From Psilocybe cubensis (Eukaryota): 64,000 bases of DNA. The position numbers were made by a program, and so were the translations under genes. Numbering within the stretch: the stretch's first letter is position 1; the number at the start of each line of letters is the position of its first letter. This document shows, one piece after another, positions 3,859 through 8,739 of the stretch. The stretch spans positions 3,162,001 to 3,226,000 of the forward strand of contig CM038998.1 of NCBI GenBank assembly GCA_017499595.2, read 5' to 3'. Below the pieces are notes generated by a model, which worked only from the letters and a program-made list of their open reading frames with translations, searched no databases and was not told where the DNA came from.

Positions 3859-5156
3859 CTAAAGCTCGTCCATCCGTTGCGAGCTGCTTCTCCCCACCAG
3901 CCAGCCCACCTTGCTTACCCAGCTGTCCCGGATTCCCCTCATCACCTCTTCAGACACACCAGGCGCCTTCGCATCCACCATCGCGTCCAGCGCGCGCTCC
4001 CAGCCCGTCACCGTCTCCCTTCCAAACATACCCCCCTCTCGGTTCACGACTTCATCGATCTTGTCGACCCATGTCTTCCACTCCTGCGTTAGCCGTGGGA
4101 CAATCATCGGCGCCAGTTCAGACAGTGTAAGAGCCGGCTGGTTGATTATCTGATTCGTCACTGCAGCAAGGAAGAGGAAGGTTTCCGAAGGATGGAATTT
4201 ATCCCTGTGCAATCCCTGGATGGTGGTCGCCGAAGTCGTCTGATTGCCGGGAGACGAATCTGTCGTCTGTGTTGGTGGAGGTATGCATGAGAAGTAGGGA
4301 AAGTATGACATGCAGGTTGATACGTAATCCGCAACGTGGGGACGCAGCCGAGAGATTATATATGAGTCGCGCATGACGGGTTGTCCCACAGGAGACGATG
4401 AAGATGTGGGACCAAAAATTGACTGGGGAGCTCGTGTCGACCCAAAGACGGAAGGTCCTTGTGAAAACGTTGGTGTGCTGGAGTACGGATATGCATCTCG
4501 CAACCGCTTGGCTGCTTGAGCCAATACTTGCTCAGCAGATTCGAGAGTCGGTCGGGGAATTAAAGGAAGGATTACAGACTTCAACGAAGGCTGAGTTTGA
4601 AGAAGGGAAGAGAGAAGGGGCAGCAATGATTGAGGAGGGAGGCTAGCTGCAAAAAAACAGTAATGAGCTTTACGTTTCTCTCAAATTCACAGTACAAGGA
4701 ACACTAACCTAACAACACGCCAATGTCAACGTCGTCATCGTTTGAATCTTCAGAGTTTCGCTTGTCTTTGGAAGATGTGGCATCTTTGGTGGCAGCAGAT
4801 TCCGATGGATTGAGGACCCGAGCACGTTTTGGCGCTGCTCGTTTGGGACGCTCGGGTGTAGGACTTCTGTCCATGGATTCATCGCGGGAAAGAGAGCGTC
4901 GCGGATGCTCTGCTTCATCTTCGGGATCATGTCTCCTCTTCTGAGGTCTATTAGACGTCGACTGAGTTAGTGAGGAAGCAAGCTGATGAAAAGCCGCAGG
5001 ATTTGTGTGCCCTGGAGTTGAAGCACCCCAGCCTGTGGCAGTACTCATGGAGGTTGAAGGAGAAGGACCGAGTCCAAATCCAAATCCAAAAGATGAAGGT
5101 GTGTGAGGCACTGGTCTTGGGTGAAAGTCGGTATGCGGATAAAGAACATTGGCCAT
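3859..5156 (-). CDS. STS1: Nuclear proteasome tether Sts1/Cut8 family protein
   Basis: Two exons (intron about 4646-4706); basic NLS-like KRR...PKRAAPKRAR followed by DIGVLLASLPP..LLPLLSSLLQTQPSLKSVILPLIPRPTLE, typical of the Cut8 domain. Confidence 0.8.
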
Positions 5157-5251
5157 CGTAAAAGAGTCGTTAGTTTGAAGGTGGATGTGGTAGGAAGAGA
5201 AAGGTTGTTCGACCTAGCCGAACACAGTGTCTGTTACACTTTTGTCACGGT

Positions 5252-5297
5252 CCACCGTGTGGTCCAAGTCACGTGAATAGGCAATAAACCTGCCCTA
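5252..5297 (+). promoter_or_regulatory. Three-part promoter module CCACCGTG / TCACGTGA / AAACCTGCCCTA in the divergent STS1 - snoRNA-host gap
   Basis: CCACCGTG 5252-5259, TCACGTGA 5269-5276, AAACCTGCCCTA 5286-5297; the same three words occur in the same order upstream of GID8. Confidence 0.6.
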
Positions 5298-5406
5298 TAG
5301 TAGCGCGTTCAAATTTAAAAAGAGAAAAAATCTTCACGTTACGGCTTGACCACTTTCGTTGTTGTTGTTTCCTTTGATTCTTTGGTATGTCCACGTTTCC
5401 CTTTGT

Positions 5407-5493
5407 TTCAAAGACGAGACCAAACGAATCGCTACTTTGAAGCTGCTACTACGGCTCATGAGCTTTATTCATATACCCAAATTTCTGATTTGA
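5407..5493 (+). ncRNA. Box C/D snoRNA, dual guide: snR50-type (25S Gm867 equivalent) plus snR40-type (25S Um898 equivalent)
   Basis: C box AAGACGA 5411-5417; guide GAATCGCTAC 5426-5435 + D' TTGA, complementary to LSU GUAGCGAUUC; guide TATACCCAAATT + D box CTGA 5485-5488, complementary to LSU AAUUUGGGUAUA. Confidence 0.85.
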
Positions 5494-5601
5494 TCCCCCC
5501 CGCGTGTTCAAAACTTCTGCTAATTCATTTTATCTCAGTCTTCTATAACAATTCGATATGTATCATCCGCTGGCATAACGTGAGTTTCTCTTCCTCTCTT
5601 C

Positions 5602-5688
5602 CACAAATGATCGAATAAAATAGAAGTCAAGCACTGACCCCGTCTAAAGGATGGGGGATGTCGATTATCCATGCTAATACTGATCCCT
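5602..5688 (+). ncRNA. Box C/D snoRNA, dual guide: snR66-type (25S Um2417 equivalent) plus snR53-type (18S Am796 equivalent, possibly also U6 A53 equivalent)
   Basis: C-like ATGATCGA 5607-5614; guide AGTCAAGC + D' CTGA 5634-5637 (LSU GCUUGACU); internal stem CCCCGTC/GATGGGG; C' ATGTCGA; guide TCCATGCTAAT + D box CTGA 5680-5683 (AUUAGCAUGGA). Confidence 0.8.
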
Positions 5689-5892
5689 CTTCTCGATATC
5701 CTTCAAAACTTGTTGCTGACCTTTTCTTTCATTCCAGGCACCTTGCTTTTGTTGATATCGTTTTATTTCTGTGTAATTTTGTGACATTGGTGAAACACAT
5801 CCTTGTTGCCGCCGATACTTCTTGTCTGAGAGATATTCAAAATTTTATTACGATAGTATGAAATTGTAAGATAAAAGGATTTCGAAAGCAAT

Positions 5893-8739
5893 TTACAAAT
5901 CTGAAGGATATGGCCAGAACACATTGAGCAACCATAAAACAACAAAGAAAGCAAGTATTCTAACACCCAGTCGAATCGTCCACGAGGTGTTTGCAGCAAA
6001 CAGTCGTTGAGTAAAACTGTGAGAGGCGGGCTGGGATGGATTCTGTGCAAGACGATCCACCCAGCGTCCCGGCCTGATTGGCGTATCGGGCTCGACAGGC
6101 AACGGATTCCCTGATTCATCCTTGAATGTATCGTCTGCTTGGAGAGGTGACAGCGATATGATGATTTCTTGCTCATCAGCGGCCAGCGGTGTCTCGGGTG
6201 AACTTTGGGTCGGAGTCGTCGCCGGTAACTCTACCTCCCGCACTCGCGTTCCACATATAGTCGCAGTGATCTCCGCTGTAGCAAACGACACTCGATCGCA
6301 GAGGTATAAAAACATCCCCGATGTAATTACGAAGTTGATAGGCCTCCATGCTGTGCCAGGAATGACGAGCAGAATACCCTTGCTATCACCCGCTAACCAG
6401 AGGTGATATTGGATTATGAACGCTTCCAAAGAACAGTTGCCCACAAAGACAAAGGCGCGCGACGAAGCCGATCGGAGTGCGACGCTCGAATTCCGCAAAA
6501 TAACGAACGCCAGAACGGGCAGGGTTGAAACGTACGGATGCCATGAGTTGTAAGCAAATTTTGACTCCTGAAAAAGTTCGAACACGAAAAACCAAATTAA
6601 AACAAGGAATGAGAATCCGATGGATCCTTTCATTGCCCAGGGCCAGCGAGGGTGATCCACGAGGCGGTGTTCGCGAACTTTTGCTATGACCACTGAAGAC
6701 AACATCCCGACATATACAATCCAGATGTCAAGGTTGACCCTGAATGCCCATTCTTGCGACGACCAATGTATTGCGAAGACATCGTGCAGAATATTGAACA
6801 ATCCTTCGAGTAACCAACTCTTATCCATAAACCAGGTCATAAACGCTGCTGAGAACAAAATTTTCCCGACGAGAAGAATAGTGCGATCGTTGAATCGGGC
6901 CCCAGCCGCCATTGTAGCATAAACGACAATGTACCACATCGATACCAGTGGGGTAAAGTAGTACGAAATGTAATCCGTATTCATGGTGTACGCCAAAAGA
7001 ATTGTGAACAGATTCAGACGAATGAGAACCTAATAAGATGGATTCAGCGTTGGAACCTGTGTGTAAAAAGTGTCTTCTTACTTGAGCAATTCGTAAAAAT
7101 CCATAATCTGCCTTCCGCAAGTAAAAGGTAGTGTGACCATAGCCAGTCATGAAAAGATATGAAGCGACCAGCACTCGTACTGGATTATATATTCCTGAGA
7201 TCTGGGATCCTCGGAAATAATGGTAGATTAGGATGACCACTACCATATAAGATGAATTAGCATGAGTCTTTGAACACGTTCAAGCATTTGTGCTCACATT
7301 GCATCCAACCCTTCCATTCTTCTGTCTGGTCACGATTGAGGAAGCCTAGGTCGGTTTCTCCTCGTTGCATGGTGGTTAATCCAAGAGCAAGTGATGTAAG
7401 GCACAATAAACTGAATCCCCAAGGATCAAATTGCTTTTGCTCTTTCTGCCAAAAATTTGTCCTGTCTGCTAGATATATAAGGGCGATTGACGACCCAATG
7501 ATTAAAGGAGGTAATGTTTGCTGCCCCAAGAGTGCGGTTCGAACATCTCCCAGACCTGAAAAAATTAGTAGTAGCTTAATAGTGTAGGCAAAACACTTGC
7601 CTGCTGTGAAAGCCTTGTAGGATAGATATGGCCCCAATGCAAGTACCATGAACAAAAACAACAGCTGAGGAATTGATGGTAGTGGGTAACGATTACAACA
7701 TGTCCTATCCAAAGGAAAGACTTTTGGCAACTTATCGTTGCAGCTGAGGTTGATTAGAATCCTAGCTTGGACTTTGACGACAGTATCTGAGTAGTGTAAA
7801 CCGTCTTCTGTAAGTGAGTCGTCCAACATTTTGTTAAACACGAGTGGGAGCGCAACTTCGCCACCAGGGGCTACGGAGAACATGTGCCCCGAGCTATCTG
7901 TAGGTGGGTTTATGCGATGGAATAGATCTGAGTTCATGGCGTCGATGTCCGAATGATGGATGGACAACGCTCTGTCCATGGAGAGCTTCGATACCGAGAC
8001 TTCTTCCACGGGTAGTATAATGACTTCGTCTGCAGGTTTACTGAAGGTCGACAACGAGTCAAAAATTCGTTCCATGTTACTCTCCCAAGCAGATATTCCT
8101 CCGGATGTGTTTGCATAGCGTAGATACCAAAGGCCAGATCCCAATACTAGCATAGCAGGTCGCATAGAATTGGTAGTCGCCGTACCGGCTAACACTTGTT
8201 GAGTGTAAGTGTTGTTGAGGTAGGGATCCCATATGAAAGTGAGATTAGTAGCATGTTGGGACTGTAGGGTATGATCCGCATGCTTTAGGGTATCATCCGT
8301 CGGAGCTGAAGGTAGAGTCGCATCTAAGGTTCTTGCAGTTTGGAAGAAAAGTTTCCGGGTAACAGAATCTCCGATGAATATGATTTCTCTCGACTGAAAG
8401 CAGGGGGCAACCTCGTCTTCGGAGTAGGGATACAACATGCACCCTAACTCACTCCATAAATCTCCTGCACCGGCAAGTAGATTAATATGAACTTACCGTT
8501 TGGTTGCCAGTTCTGATAGTCAGAATCTAACCAACTTCCGTCGTTCAGCAATGCCTCACAATGCATTGGGTCTGCCCATCCTGAAAGTAAAGTTCAGCGT
8601 CATGACGCGACGATGTCATAACATATCACCCACCAAAGAAGAGAAGATGCGTAATTCCAGAGAAACATGCCAGGAGGATGAAGAAAATGCCTAGGAAGTG
8701 TGGCCATGCTGGATTTAATGTAGATTTGAACGACGACAT
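5893..8739 (-). CDS. CAS1: Cas1-family O-acetyltransferase (SGNH-like domain plus 10-TM acyltransferase domain)
   Basis: Multi-exon; FIGDSVTR and DGLHY catalytic motifs, [37 protein letters not shown]; many TM segments. Confidence 0.9.

Follow-up and report, generated by a model that had tools for sequence, protein, structure and literature searches.

According to the available part of the Neurospora crassa survey by Liu et al. (2009, PMC2780460), 45 of 55 box C/D small nucleolar RNAs (snoRNAs) of that fungus are intronic, and the clusters numbered I–V are called UHG/gas5-like. Clusters I–III are reported across fungi, including the Basidiomycota Coprinopsis, Phanerochaete and Ustilago, in the accessible part of Luo et al. 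(2013, PMC3596301). Hosts of this kind carry one C/D snoRNA per intron between short, poorly conserved exons that lack an open reading frame (ORF), and the distance from snoRNA to splice site is constrained. Here we describe a locus of the same architecture in Psilocybe cubensis. It lies on the plus strand at about 5355–5815, between homologues of STS1 and CAS1, in a 64,000-nt stretch of the forward strand (assembly GCA_017499595.2, contig CM038998.1, positions 3,162,001–3,226,000). We call this stretch the window and use its coordinates throughout. An original prediction, made from the letters of the window, had proposed here an unannotated, spliced non-coding gene carrying two intronic snoRNAs, with the architecture of GAS5/SNHG-type hosts and with counterparts in other fungi; the two surveys cited above had already described such hosts in N. 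crassa and in Basidiomycota.

The locus departs from the described clusters in several respects. Their contents, as given in the accessible parts of the two papers, are snR72–78, snR57–55–61, snR41–70–51 and others, not the pair found here. The present unit has two introns only and is tied to STS1 and CAS1. Our literature search found no paper on this snoRNA pair or locus; the supplements of fungal snoRNA surveys lay outside that search and may list the pair. We consider it very probable that the locus is a non-coding host gene with two intronic box C/D snoRNAs, of the fungal UHG/gas5 kind. This reading draws on direct observations of sequence anatomy, splicing of intron 2, conservation, covariation and complementarity between guides and ribosomal RNA (rRNA).

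Results

A spliced plus-strand transcript

Four of the five sequencing runs that contain the stretch were compared (X1, X2, X3 and X4). In X1 and X2 the contigs leave out introns of the flanking genes, at joints with CT..AC ends, and these runs therefore derive from RNA; X3 and X4 each span all 5 kb unbroken, with no joint, and are therefore DNA. Each RNA run contains a single 303-nt contig from the locus, which runs from 5355 to 5579 and continues from 5738 to 5815. The joint 5579/5738 is flanked by GT..AG ends on the plus strand, reaches depths of 44.3 (X1) and 57.5 (X2), and is absent from both DNA runs. Intron 2 is spliced from a plus-strand transcript, as the original prediction had expected. 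Its other expected junction, 5384/5539, occurs in none of the X1 or X2 contigs, both of which retain intron 1. Assembled contigs drop rare forms, and this retention therefore does not exclude splicing of intron 1, nor does it show it. From its conserved splice signals only, we infer that intron 1 is spliced as well; we do not count the missing junction as a refutation. The host contig ends about 20 nt before the start of the CAS1 mRNA contig (5836). Transcription would probably be by RNA polymerase II.

The geometry of the two introns is alike. The 5' splice site lies 26 nt (intron 1) and 27 nt (intron 2) from the C box, and the D box, an exact CTGA in both cases, lies 50 and 54 nt from the 3' splice site. 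At 154 and 158 nt, both are long beside the four flanking-gene introns with RNA support, which measure 62, 52, 58 and 45 nt. No credible ORF was found. The longest ORF with an ATG has 6 amino acids in the fully spliced RNA (three exons, about 150 nt) and 17 amino acids in the form that retains intron 1. The anatomy set out in the original prediction can be read directly in the sequence: two GT..AG introns about three times the usual size (true for this neighbourhood), a 41-nt middle exon without a credible ORF, and a C/D snoRNA in each intron with its D box 50–54 nt from the 3' splice site. A conserved protein in the spliced exons, named there as an observation that would overturn the proposal, was not found; the ORF is 6 amino acids long and the exons cannot be aligned with those of relatives.

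Conservation of snoRNAs and splice signals

A metagenome collection was scanned for both D guides, each with its D box attached, at a spacing of 165–195 nt. The scan returned 30 contigs with both guides, 24 of them distinct at a 93% cut, or 25 distinct loci with the window included. Several features outside the search pattern are kept in these loci: the 5' splice site and a branch-like motif of each intron and, in each snoRNA, the D' guide, the cores of the boxes and the hairpin. A strict GTRNGT within 35 nt upstream accompanies snoRNA 1 in 19/25 loci and snoRNA 2 in 23/25 (shuffled means 1.4 and 1.8; maximum 8 in 2000 shuffles). With a looser 5' site the count rises to 25/25 for each snoRNA (shuffled means 5.1 and 5.6), and a branch motif plus YAG follows each snoRNA in 23/25 (shuffled means 8.5 and 9.0). 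The pattern of splice signals beside the snoRNAs exceeds chance. Among the relatives, neither exons 2 and 3 nor the flanks of the introns could be aligned, and the two exons have no conserved columns. A heuristic parse, with a few mis-parses, gives the relatives an exon 2 of 22–61 nt and introns of 136–165 and 145–182 nt. Conserved snoRNAs and splice signals set against non-conserved exons, together with a spliced plus-strand RNA that lacks an ORF, support the host-gene proposal as a whole.

In snoRNA 1 the D' guide, GAATCGCTA(C), is invariant in 31/31 alignment rows although the scan did not force it. The hairpin between D' and C' is paired in 99% of cells. Three of its four pairs, in 11 cells, have changed on both sides, a score reached by 0/500 shuffles, and sliding the partner by one column lowers pairing to 27–49%. 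As a candidate terminal stem closing the C/D kink-turn, the window offers TCAAA/TTTGA around snoRNA 1, which however leaves no bulge. Compared with Rfam snR40 (RF01201), the RNA aligns over 5407–5490 with 23.6 bits (gathering score 50) and is identical over UAUACCCAAAUUUCUGAU. The C box of snoRNA 1 has an unusual C as its fifth base, as does that of the snR40 consensus. Seven relatives score 21–24.6 bits against the same model.

The D' guide of snoRNA 2, TAGAAGTCAAGC with CTGA after it, is likewise invariant in 31/31 rows (25 distinct loci) and outside the search pattern. Most relatives have the canonical C' box TGATGA here, where the window reads TGTCGA. Its hairpin is paired in 82.7% of cells, and five of seven pairs, in 20 cells, have changed on both sides (0/500 shuffles reach this). 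The D guide is identical to the consensus guides of Rfam snoR53Y and snoU6-53, matching over CCAUGCUAAUACUGA, with scores of 16.4 bits against a gathering score of 43 (snoR53Y, RF01279) and 19 bits against 36 (snoU6-53, RF00377). The Rfam alignment implies another layout, with C box GGAUGUCGA, D' at 5680 and D at 5716–5719, which we rejected; its 'D box' is the intron branch site CTGAC. That site varies in relatives (CTTAC, TTAAC, CTAAA), as a branch site would. With a C box further upstream, a D' guide and a covarying hairpin, the layout whose D box ends at 5683 describes a complete RNA, and we adopted it.

Class membership

Searched on its own, an 801-nt stretch around the locus gave three matches in Rfam, all below threshold (snR40, snoU6-53 and snoR53Y). 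The original prediction had named an Rfam search of both introns as a check, and its outcome is divided: the D guides are identical to those of the matched families, and none of the matches attains its gathering score. The case would not stand on Rfam alone. Judged by structure, both RNAs have the features of box C/D snoRNAs: exact D boxes with variant C boxes, a C'/D' pair joined by a short, covarying stem, and, in three of the four guides, at least 10 contiguous pairs that set the fifth base against the equivalent of a residue methylated in yeast. The GA core of both C boxes is invariant in 31/31 rows, and so are the C, C' and D' box cores. Assignment to particular families does not follow. 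The score of snoRNA 1 falls short for snR40, and the part of the snR40 consensus with the 18S Gm1271 D' guide was not aligned; the guide found here fits large-subunit (LSU) rRNA. For snoRNA 2, neither the score nor the guide position agrees with snR53/snoR53Y or snoU6-53, as the guide precedes D here and not D'. As a snoRNA host gene, the locus has a spliced transcript (intron 2), one snoRNA per intron, and poorly conserved exons without an ORF.

Predicted guide targets

Target sequences came from eukaryotic contaminant rRNA in bacterial assemblies, comprising a complete LSU rRNA, small-subunit (SSU) rRNA from position 613, and 5.8S rRNA. Scanning for both snoRNA 1 guides in reversed order (the target's opposite strand) returned 32 contigs, and in 30 of these the two guide complements lie 21 nt apart on LSU rRNA. 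Ten of the 12 longest are LSU_rRNA_eukarya by Rfam; the remaining two, L031 and L044, were discarded as chance matches. The D' guide forms 10 pairs with LSU rRNA (perfect in 9/30 contigs, one G-U in 21) and the D guide 13 pairs (perfect in 9/30); in 8/30, both guides are perfectly Watson–Crick paired on one contig. With UYGA as the D' box, the fifth-base rule gives a G and a U 31 nt apart, the spacing of yeast Gm867 and Um898. UYGA was preferred because the GA of the box is kept. Reading YGAA as the D' box, with the neighbouring A as target, was less favoured; N. crassa CD25 is given as a guide for 26S-Am846, near the adenosine that YGAA would imply, in the part of PMC2780460 available.

The D guide of snoRNA 2 forms 12 bp with the SSU fragment at ...TATTAGCATGGAA..., the Am796/snR53 site. 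Its D' guide has no gap-free match in the scanned rRNA (LSU complete, SSU from 613, 5.8S; SSU 1–612, small nuclear RNAs (snRNAs) and transfer RNAs (tRNAs) lay outside the scan). The best site, ...AGCTTGACTCTAG... in three LSU contigs, combines 8 pairs, a bulged guide A and 3 pairs at -14.9 kcal/mol (next site -12.7). The fifth base before D' faces the second U of ...GCUUGACU..., a Um2417-type site. In RNAduplex the expected site was best for all four guides, at -16.1, -15.7, -14.9 and -17.1 kcal/mol against -12.3, -14.0, -12.7 and -12.8 for the next sites. A 12-mer pattern search of five bacterial assemblies gave matches at control level only and was uninformative.

In yeast the corresponding methylations are assigned to snR50 (Gm867), snR40 (Um898), snR53 (Am796) and snR66 (Um2417) in the accessible part of PMC5199042. 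The predicted 2'-O-methylation targets of snoRNA 1 correspond to yeast 25S G867 (D' guide) and U898 (D guide), and the D guide of snoRNA 2 is predicted to direct methylation of the 18S A796 equivalent. For the D' guide of snoRNA 2, the most likely site of action corresponds to 25S U2417, through the bulged duplex. Complementarity to these residues suggests, rather than records, methylation itself at all predicted sites. For N. crassa CD11, whose listed homologues are snR53 and snoR53Y, Table 1 of PMC2780460 gives one guide for both 18S-Am793 and U6-Am47, and Canzler et al. (2018, PMC5824354) find this U6 target predicted for the whole snR53 family except in Saccharomycetaceae. On this precedent, a further probable target of the snoRNA 2 D guide is the adenosine within ...AUUAGCAUGG... 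of U6 snRNA.

The contigs that supplied the targets merit a separate remark. Short contigs of eukaryotic LSU, SSU or 5.8S rRNA, most of them at low coverage, occur in thirty assemblies deposited as genomes of bacterial species (L032–L043, L045–L062; G001, G003). These contigs represent contamination and call for caution among users of those assemblies.

Neighbouring genes, gene order and promoter

The flanking genes are STS1 and CAS1, as the original prediction had named them, and both lie on the minus strand (Table 1). The host is divergent from STS1, again in keeping with that prediction, given the plus-strand joint and the minus-strand Cut8 homologue. Its proposed comparison of the STS1–CAS1 gap was carried out across the 24 distinct metagenome loci. 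An STS1 homologue (43–70% identity to that of the window) stands divergent, 128–247 nt from the first 5' splice site, in 19/24. Among the five loci without one, three have less than 100 nt of flank, L007 has 732 nt, and L013/L023 lie in a different context. A convergent CAS1 homologue follows downstream in 13/24 and is absent from four loci whose flank exceeds 1 kb; in most of the others, gene order cannot be judged from such short flanks.

Upstream of the host, CACGTG, which we take to be a Cbf1-type site, occurs at most 200 nt before the first 5' splice site in 15/25 distinct loci (1000 shuffles gave a mean of 0.9 and at most 5). GCCCTNA, presumably a Tbf1-type site, occurs in 20/25 (shuffled mean 1.0, maximum 5); the window has a one-letter variant only and is not counted among those 20. 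The two motifs lie about 20–25 nt apart in 14/25 loci (window region 5211–5354). In several fungi TBF1 and CBF1 drive ribosomal-protein and snoRNA genes, according to the accessible part of PMC4138321, and we infer a link of these factors to the host promoter. Promoter elements like those of the ribosome regulon thus appear to be common to a snoRNA host and a gene related to the proteasome.

In L013:1-2982 and L023:1-4119, which are 97.7% alike and come from one fungus, the snoRNA pair belongs to a cluster, all on one strand, that immediately follows the LSU rRNA 3' end and lacks STS1 and CAS1. The order there is a sub-threshold snR107/SNORD12-like RNA, RNase P RNA (66 bits), RNase MRP RNA (65), a U14-like RNA (38.7, below gathering), 5S rRNA (109), snoRNA 1 and snoRNA 2. 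The pair retains its flanking GT..AG signals, with the first 5' splice site about 10 nt past the T-run that ends 5S, and telomere-repeat-like TTAGGG runs lie downstream. We know of no dense non-coding RNA cluster of this make-up in a ribosomal DNA spacer.

Two further observations concern the flanking genes in the RNA runs. In the CAS1 gene (window 7554–7600), a 45-nt segment is missing from the X1 and X2 contigs; its ends are printed CC..TG, where the other minus-strand introns have CT..AC; the cut may shift by up to 4 places, so the odd ends possibly reflect placement of the joint. Single-base differences between the window and X1/X2 occur at 4279, 6175, 7127, 7422 and 3621. Some are common to X4 and none to X3; they are strain or allele differences, not editing.

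Table 1 Features of the host locus and its neighbours in window coordinates.
Feature	Position	Strand	Details
STS1/Cut8-family gene	3859-5156	-	Pfam Cut8 E 5e-11; ATG 5156-5154; one intron 4647-4708; divergent
CACGTG motif	5270-5275	.	shared STS1/host promoter; sequence
GCCCTAT, one-letter variant of GCCCTNA (telomere-repeat-like)	5292-5298	.	upstream motif
Exon 1	5355-5384	+	5' end approximate = RNA contig start (X1, X2); contig ends do not define transcription start
Intron 1	5385-5538	+	154 nt; GTATGT 5' site, branch-like CTAAT 5520-5524, CAG end; sequence
Box C/D snoRNA 1	5406-5493	+	~88 nt; ends inferred
snoRNA 1 C box AAGACGA	5411-5417	+	sequence
snoRNA 1 D' guide GAATCGCTAC	5426-5435	+	sequence
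snoRNA 1 D' box TTGA	5437-5440	+	sequence
snoRNA 1 hairpin	5441-5445 with 5452-5456	+	between D' and C'
snoRNA 1 C' box	5458-5464	+	sequence
snoRNA 1 D guide TATACCCAAATTT	5472-5484	+	sequence
snoRNA 1 D box CTGA	5485-5488	+	exact
Exon 2	5539-5579	+	41 nt; not conserved
Intron 2	5580-5737	+	158 nt; GTGAGT 5' site, branch-like CTGAC 5716-5720, CAG end
Box C/D snoRNA 2	5602-5688	+	~87 nt; ends inferred
snoRNA 2 C box ATGATCGA	5607-5614	+	sequence
snoRNA 2 D' guide TAGAAGTCAAGC	5621-5632	+	12 nt; sequence
snoRNA 2 D' box CTGA	5634-5637	+	sequence
snoRNA 2 hairpin	5638-5644 with 5650-5656	+	between D' and C'
snoRNA 2 C' box	5658-5664	+	TGTCGA in window
snoRNA 2 D guide CCATGCTAATA	5669-5679	+	sequence
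snoRNA 2 D box CTGA	5680-5683	+	exact
Exon 3	5738-5815	+	3' end approximate = RNA contig end (both runs); not conserved
CAS1-type acyltransferase gene	5893-8492 (3' part, gene extends further upstream)	-	Cas1_AcylT E 4e-72; stop at 5893; convergent

Discussion

In the mechanism we propose, a short plus-strand gene of about 5355 to about 5815 would start roughly 200 bp from the STS1/Cut8 start codon under a shared divergent promoter. Splicing would free both introns. Assembly of the snoRNA–protein particle on the C/D and C'/D' boxes would then shield about 88 nt of RNA from the trimming that removes the remainder of the intron. The spliced exons would be a throw-away carrier, and the two snoRNAs the only conserved content of the gene.

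Several observations weigh against this account. X1 and X2 come from a single study and are labelled RNA as a guess only; they were taken as RNA here because their contigs are spliced, and both retain intron 1. The relatives were picked for a close pair of D guides, and the D guides and D boxes are thus conserved by construction. Rfam gave no match at gathering thresholds across the whole window, and a whole-window search by E-value returned the snR40 match only, at E 2.9. The C boxes AAGACGA and AUGAUCGA deviate from RUGAUGA, and inspection without a formal count saw no consistent terminal stem across loci. The snoRNA 2 D' guide fits its proposed site with 8 pairs, a bulge and 3 bp, and the suggested U6 target of the D guide draws on the literature and an Rfam consensus. 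Finally, the mature RNAs, with their ends and their size of about 88 nt, are predictions from the sequence.

The retained intron 1 invites a narrower reading of the locus, which we regard as unlikely: only intron 2 would work here, snoRNA 1 would be cut from the unspliced 5' part by endo- and exonucleases, and the GT..AG around it would be a relic. Both RNA contigs are indeed uninterrupted over 5355–5579, with 5579/5738 the only joint, and precedents can be found in the accessible parts of the two surveys, where an exon-encoded CD6 sits beside intronic snoRNAs in one N. crassa cluster (PMC2780460) and yeast snoRNA introns were lost through decay of splice signals (PMC3596301). Against it, the window keeps consensus GTATGT, CTAAT and CAG at the distances seen in intron 2 (26 vs 27 and 50 vs 54 nt), and the looser 5' splice motif stands beside snoRNA 1 in all 25 distinct loci where shuffling gives a mean of 5.1; moreover, a fully spliced RNA of about 150 nt would be poorly caught by ordinary libraries and dropped by the assembler. 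It is less probable still, and in our view very improbable, that the spliced or intron-retaining RNA is itself the functional product, acting on STS1 via the shared promoter or on CAS1 via convergent transcription, with the snoRNAs as passengers. The stable linkage of host and STS1 (19/24 distinct loci, gap 128–247 nt), the host 3' end at about 5815 that almost abuts the CAS1 mRNA end at 5836, and the retention of intron 1 in the assembled species would all suit such a role. Exons 2 and 3, unlike the snoRNAs, have no conserved columns, L013/L023 carry the snoRNA pair and its splice signals without STS1 or CAS1, and a shared promoter alone can explain the linkage. That the whole resemblance arose by chance, from ordinary long introns in untranslated regions or noise transcripts with C/D-like words, we consider close to impossible: every Rfam score is below threshold, yet conservation, covariation, gene order and specific rRNA complementarity are incompatible with chance and refute it as far as sequence evidence goes.

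Within the preferred host-gene reading, one feature of snoRNA 2 stands apart. The invariance of all 12 bases of its D' guide, the bulged A included, is unexplained by the fit to rRNA. We offer with considerable doubt the explanation that this guide has another primary target (an snRNA, a tRNA or a pre-rRNA spacer), or forms an obligatory bulged duplex outside current C/D rules, and that the D guide would direct methylation of 18S A796 and of the adenosine in the ...AUUAGC... stretch of U6, presumably the catalytic AGC triad. If this were true, modification of the ribosome and of the spliceosome would be tied together, over a broad range of fungi, by a single small intronic RNA.

The locus is mechanistically ordinary and leaves the current understanding of such genes unchanged; its use lies in annotation. 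In a gap left empty by protein-centred gene finders lie two RNAs, the probable guides of four conserved ribose methylations, and annotating the host together with its STS1-adjacent counterparts in related fungi narrows the known shortfall of snoRNAs in Basidiomycota. The pairing of CACGTG with GCCCTNA could help to find further ribosome-related non-coding genes.

Compared with mammalian GAS5/SNHG genes, the present unit is likewise a disposable spliced carrier of intronic box C/D snoRNAs, but it has no sequence relation to them and is far smaller (three exons, about 150 nt spliced). Mammalian snoRNA hosts typically have a 5' terminal oligopyrimidine (5'TOP) start. The closer comparisons are with individual snoRNAs. 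The D guide of snoRNA 1 is the snR40 consensus guide of Saccharomyces cerevisiae and pairs with the Um898 site, and its D' guide pairs with the Gm867 site that snR50 serves in yeast. Yeast snR40, in the accessible part of the literature, uses its D' guide for 18S Gm1271 and Gm562; here a Gm867-type guide takes that place, and one RNA thus joins the jobs of two yeast snoRNAs. snoRNA 2 shares the guide CCAUGCUAAU(A), followed by CUGA, and the 18S Am796 equivalent with snR53, N. crassa CD11, plant snoR53Y and mammalian U6-53 (MBII-28). Those families carry the guide before D', whereas snoRNA 2 has it before D, with a snR66-like guide at D'. The latter addresses a Um2417-type U, as do snR66 of S. 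cerevisiae and N. crassa CD2; CD2 is listed, in the accessible part of its description, with 13 bp without mismatch at 26S-Um2379, against 8 contiguous pairs, a bulged A and 3 pairs for snoRNA 2. Both RNAs are thus examples of guide shuffling, an snR50-type guide having been joined to an snR40-type one and an snR53-type guide shifted from D' to D beside a snR66-like one. Particular to the locus are these two combinations, the linkage to STS1 and the bulged guide.

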